A stretch of 64,000 bases of DNA, from contig JAPPGE010000088.1 in the NCBI GenBank assembly GCA_028821455.1, forward strand, positions 26,857-90,856. Reading direction: 5' to 3'. Within the stretch, counting starts at the first letter, position 1, and every line of letters begins with the position of its first letter. The notes beneath the pieces were generated by a model. It saw only the letters and a list, made by a program, of their open reading frames with translations, was not told where the DNA came from and made no database searches. Of this stretch, positions 43,395-60,390 are shown piece by piece. The position numbers and the translations under genes were made by a program. Source of the stretch: a bacterium. GTDB lineage: Bacteria; Pseudomonadota; Alphaproteobacteria; SP197.

Positions 43395-43665
43395 GGCGGA
43401 AGGGTAGCGGGTGAAAGTCCCGTGGAAAGAAAGGAGTAGCTGACCGCGACTCTCCGCAAGCCGTGCGCCGTCGGTCGTGAAGCCGGTGGTGAAGTGTCGG
43501 TAGCGGTGCATGCGAGCGGTGAACACCTGCGTGACAAAGGCCAGCGTGGACGTCGAAGAGACCGTACCCGCCACGATCGGATTATGATTGAGGTTGATCG
43601 GACAGTGCTCCAGTCATGAGTGGAGCCAGGATTGTCCGCCACGCGGCCATGTCGCCTTCCGAGTG
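43395..43665 (+). ncRNA. candidate cobalamin (AdoCbl) riboswitch-like leader element, copy 1
   Basis: In order on the plus strand: GAAGGG..GGTGAAAGTCC (43410-43420), AGCTGACCGCG, CCCGCCAC (43567-43574, B12-box-like), GGAGCCAGGATTGTCCGCC (43622-43640). Matched from memory of the consensus; not covariance-tested. Confidence 0.4.
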
Positions 43666-43985
43666 GCTGAGGTGACGGTGCCGACAATGCTCTTCGCCGA
43701 GATCCTGCGCCGACTCAAGGCGTCCGTTTGTCATGCGTTGCAGCGCGATTCACAGGAGAGGCGCACCTTGATCGCGATCGATCTGTCCTCTGGCTCATGG
43801 CAGACGATTTCGGGAAAGACAGCGCAGTAACCGCCCAGCGTGCGGATCGGTTGCCGGTTCACATTGGGAATTCGGGCAGGACAAGCGTCCACGGCTCAAT
43901 CGGACATCTGTGTGCATGGATTCCGTCGGGACGTTGGTCTACCGTGCCGCTCACCATCATGATGTCGCAGCACAGGAGGACACGA

Positions 43986-45154
43986 TCATGCCCAAAGCCA
44001 TGAACATCGAGGAGTTTCGTTCACGCATCGATAACTGTGATCTGACGCGACGGCAGGCGGCAGGTGCACTGGCCGCGGCTGGCGTCGGTCTGACGACGAT
44101 GACGTTCGGCCCGGGCGGCGTGCGCGCCCAGGATTCCCTGCCGGTCGACGATTCGCTGCAGGTATTTGAGTGGGGCGGTTATGAGCTGCCCGAATTCTAC
44201 GTGCCTTATGTCGAAAAGCATGGGGCAACGCCGGCGTTTGCCCTGTTTGGCGAGGAAGAGGAAGCGTTGCAGAAGCTTCGCTCCGGCTTTCGATCAGACA
44301 TCGGCCACCCGTGCGTCGGCAGCACCAGGCGCTGGCGCGATGCCGGCATCCTGCAACCGATCGACACCAGCCGACTGACCCACTTCTCCGATGTTTTCCC
44401 GAGTTTGAAAGTCCTGCCGGGCAGCATCGACGAAAACGGTTTGACCTATTTCATAGCGGCCGACTGGGGCAACTCGTCGGTCCTGTTCCGCCCCGATCTG
44501 GCACCGGAGTATGTCGATACGGAGGACCAGAAGAACGAGTCGTGGGCCATCCTGTTCGATGAAAAGTATGCCGGGCGCCTCGGCATCTTCGATTCGGTGG
44601 ACGGCGTCATGGCCGTCGTCGGCTCGGTGGTCGGTGCCGAAGACCCCTTTGACATGACCGATGCCGAGTTGGAGGAGGCGACGAAGCTCTTGCGCAAACA
44701 GCGCGAAATCCTGCGCTTTTACTGGACCGATCAAACCAGCGTCGAACAGGCGCTCGCCTCGGGCGAAATGGTCGCGTCCTATGCCTGGAACAGCGCCATC
44801 GTCGAACTCAAGAAACAGGGCGTCAATGTCGTCTACATGAACCCGAAGGAAGGCATCTGGACCTGGGTGTGCGGCTTGACGCTGCTTGTCGACGGTCCAG
44901 GCGACCAGAACAAGGCTTATGAGTTCATCGACGCCTGGATCTCGCCGGCGTCCGGCAAGAACCTGATCGAGATGTACGGTTACGGCCACTCCAATGCCAA
45001 GTCGTTCGAACTGGTCGATGCGGCCGTCCTCGAAAACCTCGGCATCACGGATCCGGATACGATGATGGCGAACAGCCGCTTCTTCGGCGAGATCAAACCG
45101 GAAGTGCGCGAGAAGTACATCGTCCTCTTCGACGAGATAAAGGCCGGTTTCTAG
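43986..45154 (+). CDS. orphan PotD/PotF-family (family 1) ABC substrate-binding protein with Tat-like signal
   Basis: N-terminal LTRRQAAGALAAAGVGL signal. PotD/PotF-like fold pattern. No adjacent permease or ATPase. Confidence 0.75.
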
Positions 45155-45997: not shown

Positions 45998-46309
45998 ATG
46001 TACAGGATCGATCCCGGACGCACCGATCTGGCCGAGGAATTCCGGCGCAATCCCTTCGGACCGCACAGTGCCGAGCTCCAGAAGGTGCTCAATGTCATGC
46101 GATGGGAGCCCATCGAAGGCAAGTATGTCCTGGTCAACACGGTTCCTCACAAGGAGTGGTGTCTCGCCCAGCTTCCGGGGAAGCGCGGTGTGCCGGTGAC
46201 GCTCCACGAGGACGTGGTGTTCACCGACCTCGGCGAGGCCGAGTGGTACATCTTCAGACTGCGCTGGAAGAAGCACACCGGGGTTGATCTGGACCAGGCC
46301 TCTCAATGA
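45998..46309 (+). CDS. small subunit of a two-subunit N,N-dimethylformamidase-like amidohydrolase (DmfA1-like)
   Basis: 103 aa, ATG 45998 preceded by AAAGGGA, stop overlaps the large-subunit start (ATGA). Assignment rests on size and coupling to the large subunit. Confidence 0.5.
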   Translation: MYRIDPGRTDLAEEFRRNPFGPHSAELQKVLNVMRWEPIEGKYVLVNTVPHKEWCLAQLPGKRGVPVTLHEDVVFTDLGEAEWYIFRLRWKKHTGVDLDQASQ

Positions 46310-48546
46310 CCTTCGATTACCGCAGACGCATCCTGGGCTACCCGGATCGCGTTCGTGCAAGGCCGGGCGAAACCATTGACTTCAAGATCAGTCTCGAAGA
46401 CCACGAGACCTTCTTGTTCAGGACCGTTCGCATCGTCTGCGGTGTCGAGACTCCGGACGGCGCTCCCTACCGCGAGGTTGAAATCGAGACACCGGCAAAC
46501 GGACTCCACGAAGGCTCCTGTCAACCCATCGATGCCGGTTCCTACGCGATCATCCCCTCCGCACCAATCCTTGACCGGCTTTCGACCTTCACGTTCCAGG
46601 CCTTCATCATGCCGACCCTTCCCGGCGACGGACGCCAGGCCATCGTCAGCCGTGGCTCGGGTCCCGGACGACCCGGTTTCGCGGTCATTCTTGATCTGGA
46701 GGGCGCCCTTGCCCTGATGGTGGGCAACGGTCATGACCTCGTCACCGTTTCGACCGGCAGATCCCTTCAACCGTGGAAATGGGTCTTTGTGACGGCAAGC
46801 TACGACGCAGCGAACGGTTCGGTCACGCTGAGCCAGGAACCGCTCATCCATACCGGCGACTCCAGCAGTCCCGAGCGTATCACGGGGCATGCGCCGCCCG
46901 GCGTGGTCTTCGCGGCCGATCATGACCTCCACATGGCTGCCTGGCAGACCGGATGGCATGAGGATGGCAGACCCCGAATGGTCGGACACTTCAACGGGCG
47001 TATCGACAGTCCGCGCCTTGCCTCGAGGATTCTCGAAGCTCACCAGACAGCGGCACTGGCACGGTCGGGGCCGACGCCGGCCGACGGGGTTGTCGGCGCC
47101 TGGGACTTCGCGGCTGACATTCCCGGCGACACCTTCCCCGACCGTTCCGGCAACGCTCTTCACGGTCGTCTTGTCAATCTGCCCTCGCGGGGGGTGACCG
47201 GACGGCAGTGGGACGGATCCTGCCATGACTGGAGGGAGTGCCCAGACCACTACGCGGCCATTCACTTTCACGACGACGATCTCTTCGACGCCGGCTGGCG
47301 GACCACCGTATCCATGGCCGTGCCCGAGTCTCTCGCCAGCGGAGTCTATGCCGCGCACTGCCAGGCCGGAGATGACACGTGCCACATTCCCTTTGTCATC
47401 GTTCCCGAACGCGAGGCGCCGAGGGAACGCGTCGCCTTTCTCGCCTCCACGGCCACCTGGCTTGCCTATGCCAACAACCACTGGCAACTGGACGAGGAAA
47501 AAGCCGAGGTGAAGCGCGGGCGGATCATCGACTACAGCCCCGACGAACTCTTCCTCCATGAACGGCGCGATCTCGGTCTTTCGACCTATGATACGCATCG
47601 CGACGGATCGGGCGTGTTCTACAGCTCGCGGCTGCGGCCACTGGTGAACAACTACAGTCCGAAGTCGGCGATCTGGAGTTTCAACGCGGACACGCACGTC
47701 ACCGACTGGCTGGAGGCTTCCGGAATCCCGTTCGACGTCGTCACGGACGAAGACATTCACGAGGACGGTGTCGCGGCCCTTGCCGACCACCGGGTCATCA
47801 TCACCGGGACTCATCCGGAGTACTGGTCGACGGACATGCTGGATGCGCTGGCCGCCTATTTCGATCGTGGCGGCAGGCTGATGTACCTTGGCGGTAACGG
47901 GTTCTACTGGCGCATCGCCTGTCATCCCACGCGGGGTGGCGAGGCCATCGAGGTGCGGCGTCCGGAGTCGGGAGCGCGTTTCTGGGCCTCCCGCCCGGGC
48001 GAATATCATCTCTCCTTCAGCGGCGAGAGGGGAGGATTGTGGAAACACATTGGCCGCCCTCCGCAGTCACTCGTCGGTGTCGGCACCTTCGCCACCGGAT
48101 TCGATCGGTCGGGCTGGTTCGTCAAGAAGCCGGACATCGATGACAACCCCCGTGCATCCTGGATCTTTGAGGGTGTCAAGGGCGACATCATCGGTGATTT
48201 CGGTGTCCTGGGTGGCGGAGCGGCAGGCATCGAACTCGACGGTGCCGACGAGGCTCTGGGCACGCCGCCGGAGACCATCGTGCTGGCGAGTTCGGACGGC
48301 CATTCCGCCTACTACATGCAGTCACCCGACGAGATTGTCTTCAACCATGCAGCCGTCACCGGGGACGCCAATCCCAGGGTACGAGCAGACATGGTGTACT
48401 TCACGTTGCCGTCGGGCGCCGGTGTCTTTTCCACCGGCTCCATCAGCTGGGCTGCAAGCCTGGGCTGGAACGGCTACGACAACAACGTGGCACGGATTAC
48501 CGGCAATGTCGTGCGCCGGTTTGCCGCCGACGCGGCCCTGCCCTGA
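46306..48546 (+). CDS. N,N-dimethylformamidase large-subunit-like protein (DmfA2-like)
   Basis: 746 aa, translationally coupled to the small ORF. Domain pattern and length fit the DMFase beta-subunit family. Family assignment is from memory, not searched. Confidence 0.55.
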   Translation: MTFDYRRRILGYPDRVRARPGETIDFKISLEDHETFLFRTVRIVCGVETPDGAPYREVEIETPANGLHEGSCQPIDAGSYAIIPSAPILDRLSTFTFQAFIMPTLPGDGRQAIVSRGSGPGRPGFAVILDLEGALALMVGNGHDLVTVSTGRSLQPWKWVFVTASYDAANGSVTLSQEPLIHTGDSSSPERITGHAPPGVVFAADHDLHMAAWQTGWHEDGRPRMVGHFNGRIDSPRLASRILEAHQTAALARSGPTPADGVVGAWDFAADIPGDTFPDRSGNALHGRLVNLPSRGVTGRQWDGSCHDWRECPDHYAAIHFHDDDLFDAGWRTTVSMAVPESLASGVYAAHCQAGDDTCHIPFVIVPEREAPRERVAFLASTATWLAYANNHWQLDEEKAEVKRGRIIDYSPDELFLHERRDLGLSTYDTHRDGSGVFYSSRLRPLVNNYSPKSAIWSFNADTHVTDWLEASGIPFDVVTDEDIHEDGVAALADHRVIITGTHPEYWSTDMLDALAAYFDRGGRLMYLGGNGFYWRIACHPTRGGEAIEVRRPESGARFWASRPGEYHLSFSGERGGLWKHIGRPPQSLVGVGTFATGFDRSGWFVKKPDIDDNPRASWIFEGVKGDIIGDFGVLGGGAAGIELDGADEALGTPPETIVLASSDGHSAYYMQSPDEIVFNHAAVTGDANPRVRADMVYFTLPSGAGVFSTGSISWAASLGWNGYDNNVARITGNVVRRFAADAALP

Positions 48547-48571
48547 ATCATCGGTTGGGAGGAGGAAAGGC

Positions 48572-50776
48572 ATGCGGCGGCTTCTCGGATATGCCGACAG
48601 GATCAGCGTCAGGCCAGACGAGACCATCAACTTCAAGGTATCAAGCGAGGACGAGGGCACCTTCCATCTCGACATCCTTCGTATCCGTTGCGGTGATGAC
48701 ACGCCGGCTGGACCGGGCCTCAAGGAGACGCCTGTCGAGGCCCGGGTAAACGGCGACTATCCGGCACGCTTCCAGAAGACGCAGGTCGGTTCCTTCGTTT
48801 CGGTCGATCATCCCCGGACACCGGCTCTGGAGAGCTTTACGCTGCAGGCGATGGTCTGGCCGACGCTTCTCGAGAAGGACGAACAGACCATCATGGGCTC
48901 GTGGCATGCCGGTCACCGCAAGGGCTATGCGATCGGCGTCGTCAACGGGAGACTCACTCTCACGATCGGCGATGGCAGCAGTATCGAAACACTGGTCTCT
49001 TCCGCCAGCATGCACGAACGCCACTGGTATCTCGTGGCCGCGACCTTCGACTCCGCGACAGGCGAGGCCACCCTCATCCAGGAGCCTCTCGTGCGCTATG
49101 CCGGCGATGCCGACAGTGCACGGACGACACGACCCATGGATGTCCGACCGGGAAACGGCGGCAGATTCATCATTGCCGGCCACAACAGCGATGACGGCGT
49201 CAGCGGTCTCTTCAATGGCAAGATCGATACACCGGCAGTGACCTCGCGTGTGCTCGAACGCGGCCAGATGGAGCACCTTCTGGATCGGCGCATTCCTCCC
49301 GAGGTCGCCGCCGATGTGGTCGCCCTGTGGGACTTCAGCCGCGAAATGAACGGCGTGACGGCCCACGACATCTCGCCGAACCGGCTTCACGGCACTATCG
49401 TCAACATACCCACGCGAGCCATGAAGGGCTGGAATCACGACGGCAGCGAGATGGTCTGGACCCACCGGCCGGAGCACTACGGCGCCATCCACTTCCATGA
49501 CGACGATCTCTATGACTGCGACTGGGAAACGGACGCCGCCTGGCACGTGCCCGCCAACTGCCGGAGCGGCGCCTTTGCCGCCTTCCTGACCCAGAACGAC
49601 CAGTGGTTCTATATCCCCTTCTATGTCCGCCCGCCGACCGGACGTCCGGGGGCACGCTTGGCCCTCTTGATTGCCACTTGCAGCTACTATGCCTACGTCA
49701 ACAATCACATGCCGATCGGCTGGGGTGACATGGGTGAGCATTCCGGCAACGCCTTCAGCGTGATCGACATGACCGACATTCACCTTCACATGCACCCGGA
49801 GCACGGACTGTCGATGTATGACAACCACAGCGACGGCTCCGGCGTGGCCTATGCCTCGCGTCTGCGCCCGTTCCTGCGCATGGGTCCACGAGACGATCTC
49901 TGGCAATACAACGCCGACACCCACATCACCGACTGGCTCGAGGAACAGGGGATCGCGTTCGATGTCATCACCGACGACGACCTCGACGCCGAGGGTGTGG
50001 CCCTTCTCGAACCCTATGCTTCAGTCATGACGACGACGCATCCCGAGTACACCACCACGGGAATGATGCAGGCCCTGCTTCACTACCAGCAGCGGGGCGG
50101 CCGCTTCATCTACATGGGCGGCAATGGCTTCTACTGGCGGGTGGCGCTTCACCCAACTCTTCCCGGGGTCATGGAAATGCGGCGGGCCGAGGACGGCATG
50201 CGCAGCTGGATCGCCTCGCCGGGTGAATACGTCATGAGTTTCAACGGAGAACTCGGCGGCCTGTGGCGGCGCAACGGCATGAGCCCGGAGGCGATCTGCG
50301 GCACGGGCTTCGCCGCCCAGGGGTTCAATTTCGCCCGGCCCTACACGCGAACCCCGGCGAGCGAGGATTCGCGTGCCTCCTGGATCTTCGAAGGCATCGG
50401 CCGCGACGAGAAGATCGGCGACTTCGGATCCGTCTTCGGCGGTGCCGCCGGAGCCGAGATCGACAGTATCGACCCTCAGGAAGGCACACCGCCCCACGCC
50501 CTCGTCGTCGCCGAGGCCACCGACTTCGGCGTCGATTTCCACTGGGTCAACGAGGAGTTCCTTCACACGCATTCCGCCGTCAACGGCGAGAACTGTCCCC
50601 ACGTGCGCTGTGACATGGTGTTCTACGAAACACCCAACGGCGGCGCGGTCTTCTCGACCAGTTCCATCGCTTTTGCCGGATCCCTTGCCCACAACGGTTA
50701 CGACAACAACGTCAGCCGCCTGCTCTCCAATGTCGTCAACCGCTTCCTCGATCCCGAACCCATCCCGTCACCCTGA
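48572..50776 (+). CDS. second N,N-dimethylformamidase large-subunit-like paralog (no adjacent small subunit)
   Basis: 734 aa, GGAGGA RBS. Clearly paralogous to the preceding gene along its whole length (shared HFHDDDL, YDNNV, GGNGFYWR blocks). Confidence 0.55.
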   Translation: MRRLLGYADRISVRPDETINFKVSSEDEGTFHLDILRIRCGDDTPAGPGLKETPVEARVNGDYPARFQKTQVGSFVSVDHPRTPALESFTLQAMVWPTLLEKDEQTIMGSWHAGHRKGYAIGVVNGRLTLTIGDGSSIETLVSSASMHERHWYLVAATFDSATGEATLIQEPLVRYAGDADSARTTRPMDVRPGNGGRFIIAGHNSDDGVSGLFNGKIDTPAVTSRVLERGQMEHLLDRRIPPEVAADVVALWDFSREMNGVTAHDISPNRLHGTIVNIPTRAMKGWNHDGSEMVWTHRPEHYGAIHFHDDDLYDCDWETDAAWHVPANCRSGAFAAFLTQNDQWFYIPFYVRPPTGRPGARLALLIATCSYYAYVNNHMPIGWGDMGEHSGNAFSVIDMTDIHLHMHPEHGLSMYDNHSDGSGVAYASRLRPFLRMGPRDDLWQYNADTHITDWLEEQGIAFDVITDDDLDAEGVALLEPYASVMTTTHPEYTTTGMMQALLHYQQRGGRFIYMGGNGFYWRVALHPTLPGVMEMRRAEDGMRSWIASPGEYVMSFNGELGGLWRRNGMSPEAICGTGFAAQGFNFARPYTRTPASEDSRASWIFEGIGRDEKIGDFGSVFGGAAGAEIDSIDPQEGTPPHALVVAEATDFGVDFHWVNEEFLHTHSAVNGENCPHVRCDMVFYETPNGGAVFSTSSIAFAGSLAHNGYDNNVSRLLSNVVNRFLDPEPIPSP

Positions 50777-50886: not shown

Positions 50887-52974
50887 TCAGCAAGAATCGG
50901 AAAGGGGAACGACGAGAACATCCAGAGCGATGGCGCCTCGGTCCGTGATAAGGAGAGGATTGACGTCGAGCGCATCGAGGTAGGGCCCGAGTTCGAGGGC
51001 CAGGGTCGACATCTTCATGACCGCATCGACGAGAGCACCGGAACCGACAGCGGCACCGCCGCGCCACCCCTCGAGAAGCCGGGTGAGTTTCAGGCAGGCG
51101 AGAGTTTCCTCGACCTCCAGGCGCAAGACCGGAGGACGGTAGGCGGTCACGTCGTCAAGAAGCTCGACGAGTACACCGCCGGCGCCGGCAAGAACGACGG
51201 GGCCGAACTGGGGATCGCGGGTCATCCCTACCATGGCTTCGATGCCGTCTCCGGCCATGGCCGCCACCATGCAACGTGGCCCCAGGGCCCTGGCCATGGT
51301 GCGCCAGGCATGGATGAGGCCGGCGTCATCGGCAAGGCCGGTCACGACGCCTCCTACATCCGACTTGTGGGCGATGCCCGGCATCGCCGTCTTCAGAACG
51401 ACAGGATAGCCGATCTCTCCTGCCGCCTTGCGGGCGCCTTCTTCGCTGTCGATGATCGCATGGCGCGGTGTCGCGACACCGTAGTCCTCAAGAAGCGCCA
51501 GGCCGGTCGCCTCATCGGCATCGCGCAGGCGCTCCCCCCAGTAAAGCGCTCGCTCCATGTCGGGACGCACGGGCACAGCGGCCGGACGCCGTCGCCAGTT
51601 CCTGCGCCAGAAGGCATGGGAGACGGCCTTGAGACCCGGTACGCTCCCATCGAGGACCGGCAGGTCGTGGTTGTGGGTGAAGTCCCACGCAAGTTCGTGG
51701 TGGTCGGTGCCGGAGTGGTTGGTGATGAGCGCCACGGGTTTCGTCGTCGTCGAGGCCGCAGCCAGGCAGGCGTTTGCGCAGGCGCGGCTGTAGCCGTTGT
51801 GTTGCGACACGTCGAGGAAGAAGGCTCCCAGCGCCGTTGACGGATCGTCCATGAGGGCTGCAAAGCAGTCGCGCATGACGCCGTCGTGATCGACCCCGGT
51901 CCCGAAGGCGTCACAGGGGTTCTCCGCATCGAGGCCGTAGTCGAGGCGTTCTCCAAGACTGGCTCTCGTTTTCTCGCCAATGACGGCGAACGGAACGCCG
52001 AGATCGCTGGCCAGGTCGCAGATCATCTCGCGCTCGCCACCGGAATCGTGGATCGTCGCAAGGGCGCCGTCTCCGACATCCCTCGCCCGGGCAAGCAGCA
52101 GGGACGTGGCAATGAGTTCATCGATCGTCGAGACCCGCAGCACTCCGTGCTTGCGAAAGACGGCGTCGATGGTCCGGTCATCGCCGGCAAGGGCTCCGGT
52201 GTGGCTCACCGCCATGCGTGCCGCCATGTCGGAACGGCCCGCCTTGAGCGCCACCACGGGCACGTCCCTTGCCTGCGCCTTTTCGAGAACCGCTTCGAAC
52301 CCTTGCGGATCACGGATCGTCTCGAGAAAGAGGGTCAGCACCCGCGCCGTGCCGAGTTCGAGGGCATAGTCCATGTAGTCGACGACCGTTGCCGAGGTCT
52401 CCCGACCGACGGAGGCCGCGAAATTCGGTTTCAGGCGGCTTCCCGCGAGGCAGCCGAAGACCGACCCGGACTGGGCCAGGACCGTGATCCGTCCAGGATC
52501 GAACTGCGGGAAACGGTAGGAATTGACGTGGATGGCGGCCTCATAGTTGCAGAATCCCATGCAGTTGACGCCGATCGAGGGAACATCAGCCTCGCGCAGC
52601 ATCGCTTCGAGACGCTCGGCAAGCGCCGGTTCCCTGTCGCCCGGCACGACACAGCTGCCGAAGATCGCCACCGCCCTGACACCTGCCTCGATGGCCGCCG
52701 TCACCTGATCCTCGACACGGGTGTCGCCGACCGCCATGACGGCAAGGTCGACCGGGTCCGGCAGGTCTGCCAGCGACGGATGACAGACATGTCCGGCAAC
52801 CTCTCGATAGCGCGGGTTGACCGGGTAGACCGGTCCGTCAAAATCGAGATCGCGGAATGTCTCGAGAACACTGCGTCCTGTCGCATGTTCGCGCGCCGTC
52901 GCTCCCACCACCGCCACCGATGACGGCACGAGCAGAGGCTGGAGCCGATGCGCGATACGCCGGCGCCGCATCAT
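50887..52974 (-). CDS. ADP-forming acyl-CoA synthetase (acetate-CoA ligase family; CoA-binding + succinyl-CoA-synthetase-like + ATP-grasp)
   Basis: N-terminal CoA-binding Rossmann (SVAVVGAT), phosphohistidine-loop region (SHTGALAG), C-terminal ATP-grasp. Internal ATG chosen to avoid overlap with the upstream gene. Confidence 0.8.
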   Translation of the reverse strand: MMRRRRIAHRLQPLLVPSSVAVVGATAREHATGRSVLETFRDLDFDGPVYPVNPRYREVAGHVCHPSLADLPDPVDLAVMAVGDTRVEDQVTAAIEAGVRAVAIFGSCVVPGDREPALAERLEAMLREADVPSIGVNCMGFCNYEAAIHVNSYRFPQFDPGRITVLAQSGSVFGCLAGSRLKPNFAASVGRETSATVVDYMDYALELGTARVLTLFLETIRDPQGFEAVLEKAQARDVPVVALKAGRSDMAARMAVSHTGALAGDDRTIDAVFRKHGVLRVSTIDELIATSLLLARARDVGDGALATIHDSGGEREMICDLASDLGVPFAVIGEKTRASLGERLDYGLDAENPCDAFGTGVDHDGVMRDCFAALMDDPSTALGAFFLDVSQHNGYSRACANACLAAASTTTKPVALITNHSGTDHHELAWDFTHNHDLPVLDGSVPGLKAVSHAFWRRNWRRRPAAVPVRPDMERALYWGERLRDADEATGLALLEDYGVATPRHAIIDSEEGARKAAGEIGYPVVLKTAMPGIAHKSDVGGVVTGLADDAGLIHAWRTMARALGPRCMVAAMAGDGIEAMVGMTRDPQFGPVVLAGAGGVLVELLDDVTAYRPPVLRLEVEETLACLKLTRLLEGWRGGAAVGSGALVDAVMKMSTLALELGPYLDALDVNPLLITDRGAIALDVLVVPLSDSC

Positions 52975-52990
52975 TCCGGCAATGGGCCGT

Positions 52991-54232
52991 TCAGAAGAAA
53001 ACGTATGAGCGAACCACGATGTTCTTGCGGCACGGCGCATCGGCGGGTGCGCCGGGATCGAAGCAGGCGGAGTGGAAAGACCACCTGGAAACTGATCCGT
53101 CGGTGATGGAATCGTAACACTTCAGCATGGATATCTCGTTGGGCTGCTGGCGTGGAAACCAGTACCAATCGTGGTCCGGGCGATAGGTGAACCGGGTGGT
53201 CTCTCCGACGCGATCGTCATAGATGCGGTAGTTCGTGATGTAGGGCTGATCGGCGAAGGAAGGCCAGGCACACAGGATGAAGGGATACTGCTCGACCGTC
53301 TCGAAGGGTTTGGCGAGATTGATCGACATGAATCGGCGCGACATCTTGGCATCGGCTTCGGCCTCGGAGTAGTGCTGCTCGCGTCCGAAGTTTCGCAGGT
53401 TCTGCGTCAGCAACTCCCGGCACCGCACACGCCCGGAATTGTCGTTGAGATCGTTGTGCACGAGATTGACATATCCGGTGTTCACTCCGGGGTTCTTCGC
53501 GTCCTGATCTTCCCTGACCGGGCCGTCGTAGTCCCGGTTGAAGATGTCGTGATTGTAGACGAGAGCATCGGTGGCACCGGGAAAGAAATCCATGAGAAGC
53601 CGCTCGATTTCCGGATAGAAGACGCGTTCCACTTCCACGGCGTTGTAGAAGTCGGTGCAGCTGGAGTCGAGGTGGGCCAGGGAGACTCCCAGCTTGTCCA
53701 TGCACTCGGGCGCGGTAACGGAAGGCCTTCCAGGGGTTTCTCCGATCCTGCGGGCATCGCGCACCACCTGGGGGAAATAGAGCGAACGCCTCCAGAGGTT
53801 CTCTTCCGCCTGGCGCAACAGGTCTGCTTCCTTTCGCCGCGTCGGATCCTGCCAAAGGTGATTCGACGACACGACGGAATAGGACGGATGCTCGTAGACG
53901 GTATAGCGCAGCGGCAGCACCACTCCTCCCTCGGGTGCTTTCATGCCGCTGGCGCGAATGTGCTCCATGCACTCATCCCAGGTGCGGAAACCGGTTCCCC
54001 GCCTGGTTTGCACAGGACCAGGGGGCGCATCCTCGATCCAGCGAATGAAATCGTCGACATGGCCCAGCGCAATCTGTTCGAGCGCGGCGTTGAGCGCCGC
54101 CCCGGTCCCCGCATCGCCATCGCGCTCGAATGATGCAAAGGAGAGACCGCCATTGGCTGCCACCGGCTCCGGTTGTCCGCTGGTGATTTCCAGAGACGGC
54201 ACCCAGGCCGTCTGGATTCCACGTCCGTCCAT
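52991..54232 (-). CDS. conserved hypothetical 413-aa protein (copy 1 of tandem pair); HxD-containing, possibly a non-haem-iron oxygenase-like fold
   Basis: Start MDGRGIQTAW with GGGGGA RBS, 16 nt upstream of acs. No family recognised. LVHNDLND motif. Confidence 0.6.
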   Translation of the reverse strand: MDGRGIQTAWVPSLEITSGQPEPVAANGGLSFASFERDGDAGTGAALNAALEQIALGHVDDFIRWIEDAPPGPVQTRRGTGFRTWDECMEHIRASGMKAPEGGVVLPLRYTVYEHPSYSVVSSNHLWQDPTRRKEADLLRQAEENLWRRSLYFPQVVRDARRIGETPGRPSVTAPECMDKLGVSLAHLDSSCTDFYNAVEVERVFYPEIERLLMDFFPGATDALVYNHDIFNRDYDGPVREDQDAKNPGVNTGYVNLVHNDLNDNSGRVRCRELLTQNLRNFGREQHYSEAEADAKMSRRFMSINLAKPFETVEQYPFILCAWPSFADQPYITNYRIYDDRVGETTRFTYRPDHDWYWFPRQQPNEISMLKCYDSITDGSVSRWSFHSACFDPGAPADAPCRKNIVVRSYVFF

Positions 54233-54345
54233 CTGATCCCCCGCAAGGCGTCTGTCGCTTGGCCCTACTTTGAGCCCATCGAAGGCGGATTCGCAAGTCC
54301 CGGGCGACTCCACCGCCAGGAGCAGTGGTCAATGGGGAATACAGC

Positions 54346-54531
54346 GGTGTCGTTCGGATCTGTCAATTCTGCCAAAGACGGTTGGCAGGCCTGACCGACA
54401 ACCTCTCCAAAACGTGTGCTGACCGGGTAGACTGGTCCGTCAAGATCCAGACTGCGGAACGTCTCGAAAGCGCTGCGTCCCGTCGCATGTTCGCACGGCT
54501 CCGCTCCCACCACCGCCACCGAAGACGGCAC
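54346..54531 (-). pseudogene. 5' fragment of the acyl-CoA synthetase gene carried inside the tandem duplication
   Basis: Track ORF 54265..54531 begins MPSSVAVVGAEPCEHATGRSAFETFRSLDLDGPVYPV, which aligns with acs residues LVPSSVAVVGATAREHATGRSVLETFRDLDFDGPVYPV. Homology ends about 70 aa in. Confidence 0.55.
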
Positions 54532-54576
54532 GAGCAGAGGCTGAAGCCGTGTTACTTCTGTTGTGAACCGTTCCGT

Positions 54577-55818
54577 TCAGAAGAACACGTACGAGCGAAC
54601 CACGATGTTCTTGCGGCAAGGCGCGTCAGCGGGTGCACCGGGATCGAAGCAGGCAGAGTGGAAAGACCACCTGGAAACGGATCCGTCGGTGATGGAATCG
54701 TAACACTTCAGCATGGAAATCTCGTTGGGCTGCTGGCGTGGAAACCAGTACCAGTCGTGGTCCGGGCGATGGGTGAACACGGTGGTCTCTCCGACCCGGT
54801 CGTCATAGATGCGGTAGTTCGTGATGTAGGGCTGATCGGCGAAGGAAGGCCAGGCACACAGGATGAAGGGATATTGCTCGACGGTCTCGAACGGTTTGGC
54901 GAGATTGATCGACATGAACCGGCGGGACATCTTGGCATCGGCCTCGGCCTCCGTGTAGTGCTGCTCGCGTCCGAAATTCCGCAAGTTCTGCGTCAGCAGC
55001 TCCCGGCATCGCACACGCCCGGAATTGTCGTTGAGGTCGTTGTGCACGAAATTGACATACCCGGTGTTGACTCCGGGGTCCTTCGCATCCTGGTCTTCCC
55101 TGACCGGGCCATCGTAGTCCCGGTTGAAGATGTCATGATTGTAGACGAGGGCATCGGTGGCATCGGGAAAGAAATCCAGGAGAAGCCGCTCGATTTCCGG
55201 ATAGTAGACGCGTTCCACTTCCGCTGCGTCGTAGAAATCGGCGCAGGTGGAATCGAGGTGGGTCAGAGAGACCCCGAGCCTGTCCATGCATTCCGGCGTG
55301 GTGACCGAGAGACCTCCAGAGGTTTCCTCGATCCTGCGGGCATCGCGTACCACCTGGGGAAAATAGAGGGAACTCCGCCAGATGTTCTCTTCCGCCTGGC
55401 GCAACAGGTCTGCTTCCTTTCGCCGCGCCGGATCCTGCCAAAGGTGATTCGACGACACGACGGAGTACGACGGATGCTCGTAGACGGTGTAACGCAACGG
55501 CAGCACCACCCCGCCATCGGGTGCCTCCACGCGGCTGGCGCGAATGTGGTCCATGCACTCGTCCCAGGTGCGGAACCCGGTTCCCCACCTTGTTTCCACG
55601 GGACCAGGGGGCGCATCCTCGATCCAGCGAATGAAATCGTCGACATGGCCCAGGGCGATCTGCTCGAGCGCAGCATCGATCGCCGCCCGGGTCCCCGCAT
55701 CGCCATCACGCTCAAATGATGCAAAGGAGAGACCGCCGTTGGCGGCCACCGGCTCCGGCTGTCCGCTGGTGATCTCAAGAGACGGCACCCAGGCCGTGTG
55801 GATTCCACGTCCGTCCAT
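54577..55818 (-). CDS. conserved hypothetical 413-aa protein (copy 2, about 95% identical to copy 1)
   Basis: Start MDGRGIHTAW with GAGGG RBS. Nearly identical at protein and DNA level to 52991..54232. Confidence 0.6.
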   Translation of the reverse strand: MDGRGIHTAWVPSLEITSGQPEPVAANGGLSFASFERDGDAGTRAAIDAALEQIALGHVDDFIRWIEDAPPGPVETRWGTGFRTWDECMDHIRASRVEAPDGGVVLPLRYTVYEHPSYSVVSSNHLWQDPARRKEADLLRQAEENIWRSSLYFPQVVRDARRIEETSGGLSVTTPECMDRLGVSLTHLDSTCADFYDAAEVERVYYPEIERLLLDFFPDATDALVYNHDIFNRDYDGPVREDQDAKDPGVNTGYVNFVHNDLNDNSGRVRCRELLTQNLRNFGREQHYTEAEADAKMSRRFMSINLAKPFETVEQYPFILCAWPSFADQPYITNYRIYDDRVGETTVFTHRPDHDWYWFPRQQPNEISMLKCYDSITDGSVSRWSFHSACFDPGAPADAPCRKNIVVRSYVFF

Positions 55819-55912
55819 CTCAGCCCTCGCAAGATGTCTGCTGCATGGACTACTTTGGACCCATCGCAGGCGGGGTCGCAAGGCCCGGGTCACGCCACGC
55901 CGGGAGCCGCGG

Positions 55913-56386
55913 TCAATAGGGAATCCTGCCGGTCGTCCGGTTCCAGGCGTCGAAAGTAGCAATCGCTTCGTTCGCCAACAGCCTTCGCGCGGTGATGGAC
56001 CGTTGAGATATGGCCAGCGCCACCTCGCGGTAGATGAGGTCGTCATCGAAACCGATCCGGGCCGCATCCTCCCTGGTGTTGCCATAGACGATTCGGGAAA
56101 GCCGCGCCCAGTAAATGGCGGCAAGACACATCGGACAGGGTTCGCAACTCGTGTAGATGACACACCCTTCCAGAGAAAAGGTGGAGAGTGTGCGGCAGGC
56201 GTCGCGGATGGCTACGATCTCGGCGTGAGCCGTGGGATCATGGTCGGTGGTCACGCGATTGGCGCCTTCGCCGACGATCCGGCCATCGCACACGACGACC
56301 GCGCCGAAGGGCCCGCCTTCGAGTGTCGTCACGCTGGCGTCTGCAAGGGCGATGGCCCGTCGCATGAAGGCAGCATCATCAGGCAT
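55913..56386 (-). CDS. CDA-fold nucleoside/nucleotide deaminase (TadA / guanine-deaminase-like)
   Basis: HAEIVAIR and PCPMC zinc-binding motifs. Confidence 0.8.
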   Translation of the reverse strand: MPDDAAFMRRAIALADASVTTLEGGPFGAVVVCDGRIVGEGANRVTTDHDPTAHAEIVAIRDACRTLSTFSLEGCVIYTSCEPCPMCLAAIYWARLSRIVYGNTREDAARIGFDDDLIYREVALAISQRSITARRLLANEAIATFDAWNRTTGRIPY

Positions 56387-57267
56387 CAGGAGTCCTGCCG
56401 ACTGCGCACATGGCGCACACCGAACTCGGGCGCCCTCTCCTCGACTCCGGCAAAGTAGAAGGCGTTCATCTCGCGCAGCATGGCATCGATCGGGCGAAGG
56501 CCTGCCGGGTCAAGGTCGAAGACGGGTTCGGGTTCGGGCCTGAAATGACCGAACCTGTCCTTGCCCCGGACAAGCGTCGCATAGTCGACTTCACCCACCA
56601 CCTGTCTCATTTCCGGCGTGATGAACCGCAGGGCCAGGCCGATCCGCCTCGATGCCGAAGGGTTCGCCGGGGAGGAATGATAGAGGCTGCCGTGATGAAG
56701 CGACATCTCGCCAGACTTCAGCTCCACGTCGACCGCCTCATCCTCGTCAACGTCGACTGCCAATTCCTGCCCTCTTGAGAGCTGGTTCAACTCGCGCCAG
56801 GTGTCCCGGTGCTCGACCATGCCGTGGCGGTGGGAGCCGGGTATGAACCGCATGGCGCCATTGTCCCGGGTCACGTCGCCCAGCGCGATCCAGGCGGTGG
56901 TTTCGCGTGTGTCGTCATCGAGGCCCCAGTAGCGCAGATCCTGATGCCAACCGACGAAATCCGTCGTGTGGGGCTCCTTGATGAAAAAACCGGCGCTCCA
57001 CAGGAGAAGATCGGGGCCCATCAGCGACTCGACGGGATCGAGAACGCGGCTGTCCCTCGCCAGCGCATGAATCCCGGGCAACACGAGATGGGGAACATTG
57101 AAGGTATACTGGAAGACATGGGGCTGATCGCGGGTACGATCGAGCAGATCCTCGGTTTCCTGACGGAGATCACGCGCCTCGGCGGACGAGATCGCCGGCA
57201 CGGGGAAGAGATAGCCCCGCTCGTGGTAGGCGTCCGCGGACGCGCGGTCGAGAAACCCTCGTGTCAT
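56386..57267 (-). CDS. phytanoyl-CoA dioxygenase (PhyH) family Fe(II)/2-oxoglutarate dioxygenase
   Basis: GWHQDLRYWG HxD region and distal His (GSLYHSS). PhyH/EctD-like length. Confidence 0.7.
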   Translation of the reverse strand: MTRGFLDRASADAYHERGYLFPVPAISSAEARDLRQETEDLLDRTRDQPHVFQYTFNVPHLVLPGIHALARDSRVLDPVESLMGPDLLLWSAGFFIKEPHTTDFVGWHQDLRYWGLDDDTRETTAWIALGDVTRDNGAMRFIPGSHRHGMVEHRDTWRELNQLSRGQELAVDVDEDEAVDVELKSGEMSLHHGSLYHSSPANPSASRRIGLALRFITPEMRQVVGEVDYATLVRGKDRFGHFRPEPEPVFDLDPAGLRPIDAMLREMNAFYFAGVEERAPEFGVRHVRSRQDS

Positions 57268-57543: not shown

Positions 57544-58338
57544 TCAGTCAGTCTTCGTCAGGCGCCTGGCCAGCATGTGTGTGTGATGGATGCCACCGCC
57601 GGCGAGGGCTTCAAGGCGTCGCATGCTCGCGTCAATGCGCCTGGCAAACATCTCTTCACCCAGGGCTTCCCTCAGAATCCCGGCTTCAGGCCCTCGGACC
57701 CATGCCACTTCCCGACGCGCGGCATCGAGGGACCGCACCGTGTCGTCCTTCATGCACGGAGGGCCCAGACCGGCCCGGCCGAACGCCTCCTCGTAGACGG
57801 TGAGATTCTCGAAGTGAAAGGTGAGGCCGTAGGCCTTCATGGCATCGATCCAGGCCTTGTAGAGGTGTGGCGCCGCTTTGGGACCGGAGGGAACCGTGAA
57901 GTCGGCGCAGATTACCTGCCCTCCCGGAACCAGCACGCGCGCCACCTCGTCAAACAGGGCGGATTTGTCGGGAATATGGCAGACGACGTCCTTGGCGAAG
58001 ACGGTATCGAAGGAATCATCATCAAACGGCAATGGTCCCGGTGTGACATGTTGCGTTTCGATCTTCCCGACAAGTCCGGCTTCGCGGATCGTCTCGCGGG
58101 CTCGCATGACGAGATCGCCGGCAACATCGATCGATGTCACGTGACGGGCGCCAAAGGTCCCGACAAGCATGACCGCCGCTCCGCCAAGACCACAACCGAC
58201 ATCGAGAACGGTTCGGCCGGCAAGGTCGACTCCCTCGAGCAGGGCGGCCATTTCCTCGGCGCCCCCAGGCGACAGGAACCCCTTGCCATAGAGCGCCTGC
58301 ATGCCTTCGACAACATTTGTCGAGTACTGGGTCGTCAT
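57544..58338 (-). CDS. class I SAM-dependent methyltransferase
   Basis: Motif I VLDVGCGLGG, acidic post-I residue, motif II DTVFAKDV. Confidence 0.8.
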   Translation of the reverse strand: MTTQYSTNVVEGMQALYGKGFLSPGGAEEMAALLEGVDLAGRTVLDVGCGLGGAAVMLVGTFGARHVTSIDVAGDLVMRARETIREAGLVGKIETQHVTPGPLPFDDDSFDTVFAKDVVCHIPDKSALFDEVARVLVPGGQVICADFTVPSGPKAAPHLYKAWIDAMKAYGLTFHFENLTVYEEAFGRAGLGPPCMKDDTVRSLDAARREVAWVRGPEAGILREALGEEMFARRIDASMRRLEALAGGGIHHTHMLARRLTKTD

Positions 58339-58777
58339 GAACTCGTCTCTCCACGCCACCTCGCGGACGAGGCGCAGTATTGCATGCAGGTCTCGTCGCT
58401 AGACAAGGAGGAATCTGCGCCCCGTGTTCCGTGCCGGCAGACGCAGCAGGCGCCATGGCGGGTCGGACGCCATGGCGAGCGTGCCTGTGCCGAACCGGAC
58501 GTCGATCCCTCGACCAGGACCGCCATCCCCTCCATTGCCCCAGCACATCGCCATAAAGGATGTGTCCGCTCTCAAGGCCGCCGGCGGCGGCGCCCTTTCA
58601 AACGTTGGCTGCCCAATCCAGCGTCAGAATTGGTGAACTCCAACGGGCGCGGTGCGTATGGCGCGTGAATCTTGCCGCATCCACTCGATGAACGGTCGAG
58701 CATCAAGGCCGAAATCCGTGATATCGGAGCCGACACCGGGGAAGACAACGCGAGGTGACGGATGCCTGAACGTCGTC

Positions 58778-59221
58778 TCAGCCCGTCGCCGGCCCGTGCC
58801 TGAGGGGCGTACCTTCACCGGGGAAGCCCTCGTAGCGCGGCAGATCGTCGGCGACTTCCATCCACGCGATGCGCTCGGGTTCGAAGGCATGGGCCGTCGG
58901 AACCAGGGATTCGGGCTCGTCGAACGTGCTGATGTGGAACTCGATGATCGGACCAAGGTCGCCACCGTCGCCTTCCCAGGTCAGGGGCGTGCCGCAGTCG
59001 CCGCAGAACCCGCGAAGCACACCGGGTGACGATTGGTAGTGCCTGCGGTCCGTACCGCTGAAGGTCACCTGCTCGGCCCGGTAACCGGCAAGCGTCACCA
59101 CCGCAGCACCGTTGTGCTTGCGGCAGCTGTGACAGTGGCAATGGGTCACGTCGAAAGGCTCGTCCTTCGCCTCGAAGCGTATGGCGCCACACATGCAGCG
59201 CCCGGTTCTCGTCACGGTCAT
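58778..59221 (-). CDS. GFA-family (glutathione-dependent formaldehyde-activating / CENP-V-like) zinc protein
   Basis: CMCGAIRF, HCHCHSCRK and CGDCGTPL cysteine motifs; 147 aa. Confidence 0.75.
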   Translation of the reverse strand: MTVTRTGRCMCGAIRFEAKDEPFDVTHCHCHSCRKHNGAAVVTLAGYRAEQVTFSGTDRRHYQSSPGVLRGFCGDCGTPLTWEGDGGDLGPIIEFHISTFDEPESLVPTAHAFEPERIAWMEVADDLPRYEGFPGEGTPLRHGPATG

Positions 59222-59298
59222 CGGTGTTGCTCCCGTTCGGGCACGCAGTGCACACCCTTCGCCCTTGTGCCCGTCTCGTCTTCGCACAAGTCTATCGC

Positions 59299-60390
59299 CT
59301 ATTCTCCCGGCAGGACATAGGCGCTCTCCGGCAGCCACGACACAAAGATCCGCGTACTGACATCGGTGTTGAGATGCGCGATCTCGTCGTGGCTCTTCTG
59401 TGCCCTGATTTCCTGGCCATCGTCGGTTTCGATGTGGATCGTGACCGTCGCGCCTACAAACTCCTCTCCGATCACCCTGCCTTCCAGAACGTTCCGTGCG
59501 TCAGCCGGCTGTTCCTCGGAGAGGACCATGCGGTCGTTGCCGACAACGAACGTCGTTGATGCGCCTTCTTGTTTCCCGCCCGCGCCGCTGGCGTTCACAT
59601 AGAACCTCCCCTGACCTGTCTCGATCGGGAGAAGACCGCCATCCATGGGTGCCATGCGGCCCTGGAAGATGTTCGAGGAACCCAGGAACTCCGCAACGAA
59701 ATGGTTGTGTGGCGTGCGGTAGATCTCGACCGGCGCACCAATCTGCTCGATCCGGCCACGACTCATGATCACGATCCGGTCGCCCATGGCAAAGGCCTCC
59801 GACTGACTGTGCGTCACGTAGACAAAGGTGATTCCAAGTTCCTTCTGAAGGTTCGAGAGGATGGCCTGCATGCGGACCTTCAGATGGGCGTCCAGTGAAC
59901 TCAGGGGCTCGTCCAGGAGCAGGATCTCGGGCTCGGTCACGAGCGAGCGCGCCAATGCGACACGTTGACGCTGGCCACCTGACAGCTGGCTGATGTCGCG
60001 CCTGGCAAACTCGGCGATCCCCATGCGATCAAGCCATTCCATGGCCTTTCCACGGCGCCTTGCCCTGTCCATGCCGCGCATTTTCAGGCCGAACTCGACA
60101 TTTTGCAGGACGTCGAGAAAGGGAAAGAGCGCCAGGCTCTGCCACACCATCGGCGTGTCCCGTCGCCATGTCGCCAGATCGTTGATCCGCCGGCCATCCA
60201 GGCGGATCTCGCCTTGTGTCGGAGCATCGAGACCGGCGAGCATGCGCAGCGTTGTGGTCTTTCCGCACCCGCTGGAGCCCATGATCACCAGAAACTCGCC
60301 CTTGCGGATGTCCAGATTCATGCGGTCCACGGCGATGGTGTCGCCAAACCTCTTCTCGACATTGTCGAAGACGACCAGCGATTCAGCCAC
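59299..60390 (-). CDS. ABC transporter ATP-binding protein (PotA/FbpC-like)
   Basis: Walker A GSSGCGKTT, LSGGQRQRVALAR signature, and a C-terminal TOBE-like regulatory domain. Confidence 0.85.
   Translation of the reverse strand: MAESLVVFDNVEKRFGDTIAVDRMNLDIRKGEFLVIMGSSGCGKTTTLRMLAGLDAPTQGEIRLDGRRINDLATWRRDTPMVWQSLALFPFLDVLQNVEFGLKMRGMDRARRRGKAMEWLDRMGIAEFARRDISQLSGGQRQRVALARSLVTEPEILLLDEPLSSLDAHLKVRMQAILSNLQKELGITFVYVTHSQSEAFAMGDRIVIMSRGRIEQIGAPVEIYRTPHNHFVAEFLGSSNIFQGRMAPMDGGLLPIETGQGRFYVNASGAGGKQEGASTTFVVGNDRMVLSEEQPADARNVLEGRVIGEEFVGATVTIHIETDDGQEIRAQKSHDEIAHLNTDVSTRIFVSWLPESAYVLPGE

Follow-up and report, generated by a model that had tools for sequence, protein, structure and literature searches.

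An Old, Retained Tandem Duplication of an Oxygenase-Like Gene and a Decaying Acyl-CoA Synthetase Relic in an Alphaproteobacterial Contig

Introduction

Tandem duplication-amplification in enteric bacteria and the innovation-amplification-divergence model, reportedly the work of Andersson and Hughes, of Reams and Roth and, in 2012, of Nasvall et al., offer a close comparison for the locus analyzed here. That locus lies in a stretch of 64,000 nucleotides (nt) of the alphaproteobacterial contig JAPPGE010000088.1 (assembly GCA_028821455.1, positions 26,857 to 90,856 of the forward strand), hereafter the window, in which a gene for a 413-residue oxygenase-like protein is present twice in direct tandem with the start of the neighboring acyl-CoA synthetase gene (acs) between the copies. 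We call the two copies paralogs A and B. The locus is an ordinary, long-retained pair of diverged paralogs with a decaying relic, a kind of arrangement that is already known. It resembles the enteric duplications in being head-to-tail, in having a short homology near its join, and in taking in a gene along with truncated neighbors and its own upstream region, and the later divergence of one copy corresponds to the last stage of the model. Enteric intermediates are said to be near-identical, unstable and polymorphic in copy number, whereas the repeat units here are 12.5% diverged, fixed at two and common to several species.

Bacterial paralogs can also be homogenized by gene conversion (concerted evolution), as in the case of tufA and tufB in Salmonella. 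A comparable tract-wise, partial homogenization is apparent among relatives of the window, which we denote by L-numbers (L001-L170, fetched loci of related genes in other assemblies or metagenome-assembled genomes, MAGs): L006 has a chimeric A copy (L006_A), and the copies of L169 and L167 look nearly homogenized. At neutral sites, as with the tuf genes, copies from one genome or clade fall together. The tuf genes are dispersed, however, whereas the copies here adjoin, and short islands within them (codons 146-149 and 347) stay different.

The sole relative of solved structure that was turned up by sequence is NvfI, the Fe(II)/2-oxoglutarate-dependent endoperoxidase of novofumigatonin biosynthesis (PDB 7DE2; PMC8292354). 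Paralogs A and B are like NvfI in that their C-terminal ~245 residues score above the cutoff of the shared NCBIfam family and their distal His and C-terminal R-x5-R align with it. They differ from it in having ~170-190 additional N-terminal residues that are highly conserved, and in their genomic setting, a bacterial operon that also encodes a deaminase, a PhyH dioxygenase, a methyltransferase and an ADP-forming acyl-CoA synthetase. Our explanation of the locus, which we consider likely as a whole, is an old duplication by illegitimate recombination after which both copies were retained and came to differ in substrate handling.

Results and Discussion

Structure and Age of the Tandem Repeat

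Self-BLAST of positions 52000-56600 revealed a direct tandem repeat, 52747-54360 against 54349-55943, with 87.5% identity and 5 gaps over 1614 alignment columns, and a repeat finder gave a period of 1586-1602 nt. The only other sizeable repeat in the 64 kb window is an old patch of 66.6% identity in a pair of N,N-dimethylformamidase-like (DMFase-like) genes, so that the repeat at 52747-55943, as the sole large one besides that patch, is well beyond chance. The duplicated unit extends from ~30 nt before the stop codon of the deaminase gene to ~228 nt into acs and includes the whole upstream intergenic region. Repeat unit 1 (52747-54360), which adjoins acs, contains on the minus strand a remnant of the 3' end of the deaminase gene, followed by the intergenic region, paralog A (52991-54232) and the initial ~228 nt of the functional acs. 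Repeat unit 2 (54349-55943), which adjoins the deaminase gene, contains the true 3' end of that gene, the intergenic region, paralog B (54577-55818, minus strand) and a relic of the acs 5' end.

A first-pass annotation of this DNA had described a tandem duplication of the 413-residue gene and the first ~200 nt of acs at 52767-55940. The duplication is real, its limits agree with the self-BLAST boundaries to within about 20 nt, and its identity lies above the 80% that had been named there as a lower limit. The two genes had been judged ~95% identical, which is too high; their identity is 91.4% in DNA and 92.3% in protein, and 95% is reached only in the 3' 300 nt. Long runs of identical DNA, also noted there, exist to a modest extent, the longest exact match between the repeat units being 74 nt and six being at least 30 nt.

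The differences between A and B number 27, 8 and 72 at codon positions 1, 2 and 3, which corresponds to a nonsynonymous divergence (dN) of 0.037, a synonymous divergence (dS) of 0.31 and a dN/dS of 0.12. For comparison, the dS of the flanking genes (acs and the PhyH gene) between the window and its relatives was 0.21-0.22 for L007, 0.29-0.32 for L008, and 0.36-0.45 for a sister clade. Since the dS of 0.31 between A and B falls alongside the flanking values of 0.21-0.32, the duplication is about as old as the split of these species-level lineages. Purifying selection also acts on each copy by itself, as the dN/dS among orthologs is 0.15-0.23 for A and 0.10-0.12 for B.

The distribution of the doubled state among relatives agrees with this age. 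The exact A protein is encoded in L001 (a metagenome scaffold from ENA) and L002 (GCA_028820225.1), both of which have two copies in the same structure, encode proteins identical to those of the window and are ~99% identical to it in DNA; at 99% rather than 100% identity, they represent different strains or assemblies from the window. At least four further lineages, namely L003/L007 (a 1.33 Mb chromosome record), L008, L169 and L167, have two copies as well, joined at the same junction and with the acs start removed by the same deletion; of these, L007 and L008 are chromosome-level MAG records. Copy number was exactly two in all carriers (the window, L001, L002, L167, L007, L008 and L169). Single-copy relatives exist as well (L012, L087, L010, L014, L170, L013, L016/L005 and L004), and a metagenome scan for further close relatives added only one of these, L087. 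The doubled state is common to several lineages and is not recent.

These data bear directly on whether the repeat could be a recent, unstable amplification intermediate under current selection for copy number, as had been suggested. The head-to-tail geometry with a novel junction is what such an intermediate would have, and unequal crossing-over could still be supported by exact matches as long as 74 nt. However, a dS of 0.31 and an overall identity of 87.5% are not those of a recent event, one and the same junction has become fixed in several lineages at the species level, no carrier has more or fewer than two copies (the three ~99%-identical assemblies among them), and the acs relic bears old common deletions in addition to later lineage-specific ones. 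Taken with a dN/dS of 0.12 between the copies and the separate constraint on each, these findings make a recent amplification highly improbable. The lead from the genome scan is thereby removed: the locus is not an active amplification and is uninformative on current dosage selection or on assembly quality.

Still less credible is that the second gene is an assembly artefact, one gene having been spuriously expanded. Nothing supports this for the window itself, although L167 and L169 are short-read contigs with suspiciously identical stretches that might be graph collapses. The repeat units differ at 12.5% of positions, and the genes do so with a codon pattern (27/8/72) of the type produced by selection; the same structure is found in independent assemblies from different samples and in the chromosome-level MAG records of sister species. 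Its presence in 99%-identical assemblies and in related MAGs excludes, for practical purposes, both an artefact and a transient amplification.

Some further observations were made on these relatives. An apparent contig break at the repeat in L001 and L002, both of which end at window position 44991, was dropped as these ends are the flank limit of the look-up. Differences between the window and L001 are clustered, with 31 in 250 nt at 55900-56149 (the 3' half of the deaminase gene, beside the repeat boundary) in comparison to 0-3 per 250 nt elsewhere, apart from further clusters at 46900-47400 and 59150-59400. In the deaminase 3' half, the window is nearest to L008 and L001 is nearest to L007, and the clusters look like imports by homologous recombination between lineages. 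At the single-copy locus L004 (9301-12001), the DMFase-like genes are fragmented, a transposase is nearby, and acs does not adjoin the oxygenase-like gene.

The acs Relic, the Junction and the Upstream Block

The internal copy of the acs start had been interpreted as a decayed pseudogene with about 70 residues of homology, and our analyses led to the same view. By tblastn, the relic (about 54331-54549, minus strand) matches acs residues 10-82 with 70% identity over 73 residues, and its ATGATG start has been lost through deletion. The functional acs (50887-52974, minus strand; 695 residues, as also called in L001 and L002) has CoA-binding, succinyl-CoA-ligase-like and ATP-grasp domains in one chain (Pfam CoA_binding_2, Succ_CoA_lig and ATP-grasp_5). 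Pfam found in the relic just the first ~60 positions of CoA_binding_2 and, with this little of the first domain only, the relic is not a functional ADP-forming acyl-CoA synthetase.

Relic and functional acs differ with a dS of 0.37-0.40 and a dN/dS of 0.41-0.47. With a dS like that between A and B, such a ratio is the pattern expected if one of two lineages is unconstrained. Between species the relic is 78-86% identical versus 89-94% for the functional acs, and an extra frameshifting deletion of 28 nt in the relic is common to L007, L008 and L169. The divergence of the relic is neutral decay. An 88-residue open reading frame (ORF) over the relic, at 54265-54531, was considered as a real small gene and rejected based on the lost start, the frameshifting deletions in sister species and the relaxed constraint.

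At the novel join, acs-derived and deaminase-derived sequence meet in TCCGAACGAC (54349-54358, minus strand). The parental sites are CCGGTCGACC in acs (52746-52755) and CCGGACGACC within the last 30 nt of the deaminase gene (55931-55940), which agree in 9 of their 10 nt and stand in register, a few bases off the switch point. Next to the join, the final ~20 nt of the deaminase gene survive as a relic that includes the former stop codon (CATTGA; 54327-54348, minus strand), identified by alignment to 55913-55943. A novel junction that arose at a short homology is suggested by these sites, which are read from sequences that have since diverged. We hypothesize an illegitimate recombination whose breakpoints lay ~230 nt into acs and ~30 nt short of the end of the deaminase gene, with the short imperfect homology CCGGNCGACC at or beside the join. 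The doubling of the oxygenase-like gene, which took its own upstream region along, predates the divergence of the window's species, L007, L008 and L169, and the acs fragment trapped by it has since lost its start and is decaying as a pseudogene.

The upstream region that was doubled contains a block of 32 nt, CTTGCGA-N18-CAAAGTA. Ahead of paralog A it reads CTTGCGAATCCGCCTTCGATGGGCTCAAAGTA (54266-54297, minus strand) and is followed by a Shine-Dalgarno-like run, GGGGGA, before the ATG; the same element lies ahead of paralog B at 55851-55882 (minus strand). The block, CTTGCGAATCCGCCTTCGATGGGTTCAAAGTA, together with a ribosome-binding site of the GAGGGA type, precedes every A, B and single-copy gene (19 loci) and is kept where the surrounding intergenic DNA has diverged. 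A scan for sigma-70 promoters and terminators found nothing above shuffled expectation near either copy and did not call the block, and a search against Rfam found no match in the repeat. We consider the block a candidate promoter/operator on the strength of its conservation. As it stands before every copy, each paralog probably carries its own expression signals and may be driven by its own upstream element.

Protein Family of Paralogs A and B

The 413-residue gene had been called unknown. Both paralogs, however, score above the curated cutoff (80 bits) of NCBIfam NF041278, the CmcJ/NvfI family oxidoreductases, with 134.6 bits for A and 139.1 bits for B, and the match spans the C-terminal ~245 residues of each. 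NCBI names both exact proteins accordingly (the A protein is MDE0242419.1, "CmcJ/NvfI family oxidoreductase"). Public precomputed annotation assigns Pfam PF27522 ("YDMC") to all homologs; a literature search on that Pfam name returned unrelated papers only. Profile searches found no family match for the N-terminal ~170-190 residues of A and B, and yet this region is strongly conserved.

Five residues, H259, D261, H387, R402 and R408, are invariant in all 120 family representatives and in both copies. They comprise a predicted metal site (H-x-D plus a distal His) and a predicted 2-oxoglutarate-binding Arg. Residues 297-412 align to NvfI (E about 5e-6), which covers the His (H387) opposite the distal metal ligand of NvfI and the C-terminal R-x5-R. 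The alignment stops short of H259 and D261, which are putative metal ligands by their HxD motif only. Based on these features, A and B are predicted to be Fe/2-oxoglutarate-oxygenase-like proteins of the CmcJ/NvfI family.

Among loci L017-L166, PF27522 proteins of 413-425 residues are 66-77% identical across MAGs labelled Alphaproteobacteria, Gammaproteobacteria, Pseudomonadales, Candidatus Binatia and Thermodesulfobacteriota, and genomes often have such genes at more than one locus. This conservation across phyla suggests either horizontal spread or very strong constraint. In the Binatia loci, a distant (~26%) and shorter paralog lies 2-4 kb downstream. Local duplicates of more distant family members were also observed at L018 (4825-8215; 92% protein identity, 958 nt apart) and L020 (5167-8227; 97%, 607 nt apart), which indicates that doubling of this gene recurs in other lineages.

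Divergence of Paralogs A and B

Paralogs A and B differ at 32 residues. Five of these are fixed differences when the A copies from the window, L007 and L008 are compared with the B copies, and two of the five replace arginines: A keeps Arg149 and Arg347, and B has Ile146-Trp147-Arg148-Ser149 and Val347. Arg347 is present in 118 of the 120 family representatives and is absent from only 14 of the 183 gene copies of the fetched loci, 12 of those 14 being from doubled loci. Arg149 is found in 116 of the 120 representatives and in 160 of the 183 copies. Nearly all B-position copies, in the window's clade and the sister clade alike, have S or C at residue 149 and V, L or A at residue 347, and IWRS at 146-149 is a signature of these copies in both clades. 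By its placement in the alignment, Arg347 appears to lie just after the segment that matches substrate-closing loop II of NvfI (PMC8292354).

That one copy has consistently lost two conserved arginines suggests functional divergence. Since B retains the ligands for metal and co-substrate and is under the tighter constraint, the loss would reflect a change in substrate handling and not decay. In the history that we favor, purifying selection has kept both copies, B retaining its distinct signature (Arg149 and the near-invariant Arg347 lost, the metal and 2-oxoglutarate ligands kept), and occasional gene conversion would have partly homogenized the two. The pair would persist since A and B differ in substrate handling, that is, by sub- or neofunctionalization.

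Gene-conversion tracts between the copies appear clear in relatives. In the A copy of L006, an A-type 5' part is followed by a B-type 3' part. The identical stretches of L169 and L167 are either recent conversions or collapses of the short-read assembly graph. For the window itself, the only comparable observation is a lower dS (0.18) in the 3' third of the gene. For L167 (1423-4250; GCA_028818835.1, JAPPMZ010000139.1), we also observed that 343 of 344 nt of the spacer are as in the window and that the flanks are ~5% diverged, which would be explained either by conversion of the whole gene together with a recombinant spacer or by a chimeric or collapsed short-read assembly.

Several observations weigh against a functional difference between the copies, or against the history as a whole. 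Both copies of L167 are A-type, identical at 1235 of 1242 nt and encoding the same protein, and those of L169 are identical over nt 1-900, such that copy B there has Arg149 and is B-type (Val347) only in its 3' part. The B signature would thus not be indispensable, unless these two short-read assemblies have collapsed. Arg149 is also less conserved than Arg347, and the microhomology at the join is taken from present-day sequences that have diverged since the event. In addition, an AlphaFold2 model based on a 34-sequence alignment had a mean predicted local distance difference test score of 43.5, which is too poor to place Arg149 or Arg347 at an active site.

The counter-examples of L167 and L169 keep alive a plainer rival, namely that two copies were retained for more of the same enzyme and that the differences between A and B are functionally neutral. 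Purifying selection on the two copies is similar, homogenization by gene conversion has been repeated, to the point that the L167 copies encode one protein, and other family members are also local near-identical duplicates (L018, L020). On the other hand, Arg149 and Arg347 are replaced in the B-position copy of both clades, and Arg347 is otherwise near-invariant in the family. Neutral drift is not expected to strike the same two arginines in the same copy and to hold across species, and it is the B orthologs that are the more constrained (0.10-0.12). We therefore regard retention for dosage as unlikely and a difference in substrate handling as the better account.

The two arginines are concrete targets for mutagenesis in a large, very conserved and uncharacterized branch of the CmcJ/NvfI family and could help to identify its substrate. 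More generally, the locus is a clean natural example of the long aftermath of a bacterial tandem duplication, as it offers a datable junction, a neutrally decaying relic of a neighbor gene, partial homogenization, and two short islands that stay different.

Comparison with the Sister Clade

In the sister clade, the gene is doubled with a different spacer. Whereas the spacer in the window's clade is the acs relic (type I), the spacer of L006, L015, L009 and L011 is composed of the first 11-12 nt of acs and the final ~195 nt of the deaminase gene (type II). In L168, the left breakpoint is that of type II and the deaminase relic has since been deleted. A phylogeny of the flanking genes resolves the two types of junction as two monophyletic groups, with L012 and L014 outside and L010 secondarily single.

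Two separate doublings, one in each clade, with the B signature reached by parallel selection or by tract exchange, would account for the two junctions, each of which maps to one monophyletic group, and would require fewer events of gain and loss. All clade II copies group together with 91% bootstrap support to the exclusion of clade I. Third-codon-position quartets favor the pairing of A with the B of its own clade (16.9 sites), and the cross-clade grouping of B with B has 4.9 sites against 4.7 expected as noise. Recombination imports between lineages, by which tracts could be exchanged, do occur at the locus.

Against two doublings is the likeness of the B copies themselves. Codons 146-149 of B are ATC TGG CGG AGT in both clades, including one synonymous change, as opposed to AAT TCG AGG CGT in the single-copy genes and the clade II A copies. 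The loss of Arg347 is likewise common to the B-position copies of both clades, and in nt 361-540 the B copies are nearer to each other across clades than to their own A copies. Spacer deletions occur (L168; L007/L008) and gene conversion is shown, and a single duplication that was older and larger, with gene conversion and differing spacer deletions afterwards, therefore fits equally well. We lean very slightly towards this single origin and give two origins a little less than an even chance. Under either history the duplication in the window is old.

A stronger version of the two-origin history, in which independent duplication in the two sister clades was followed by parallel loss of Arg149 and Arg347 in the upstream copy, we think improbable. 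If true, it would represent repeated, predictable neofunctionalization towards a new substrate in an uncharacterized enzyme family that crosses phyla.

Other Features of the Window

The genes of the locus are all on the minus strand. In transcription order they are a methyltransferase gene (57544-58359), the PhyH-type dioxygenase gene (56386-57267), the gene for a cytidine/deoxycytidylate-type deaminase of 157 residues (55913-56386; Pfam dCMP_cyt_deam_1, E 6e-29), paralog B, the dead acs relic, paralog A and, last, the functional acs. Plus-strand ORFs at 53171-54133 and 54325-55719 were set aside as antisense shadows of the minus-strand genes in GC-rich DNA.

Elsewhere in the window, positions 43414-43564 (plus strand) matched the Rfam group II intron D1-D4 family (RF02005) with 49.5 bits, against a gathering score of 49. 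The ORF that follows (43910-45154) encodes a solute-binding protein and not a reverse transcriptase, and the match may reflect either an intron fragment that lacks an ORF or a borderline hit.

The two DMFase-like genes (46306-48546 and about 48500-50776, plus strand) are adjacent and resemble the N,N-dimethylformamidase large subunit, with DMFA2_C and lectin-like domains. They are older tandem paralogs, their 66.6% identical patch lying at 47574-47912 and 49804-50139. Beside this pair, L001 and L002 have a small gene of the DMF_alpha type as well as genes for ABC transporters.

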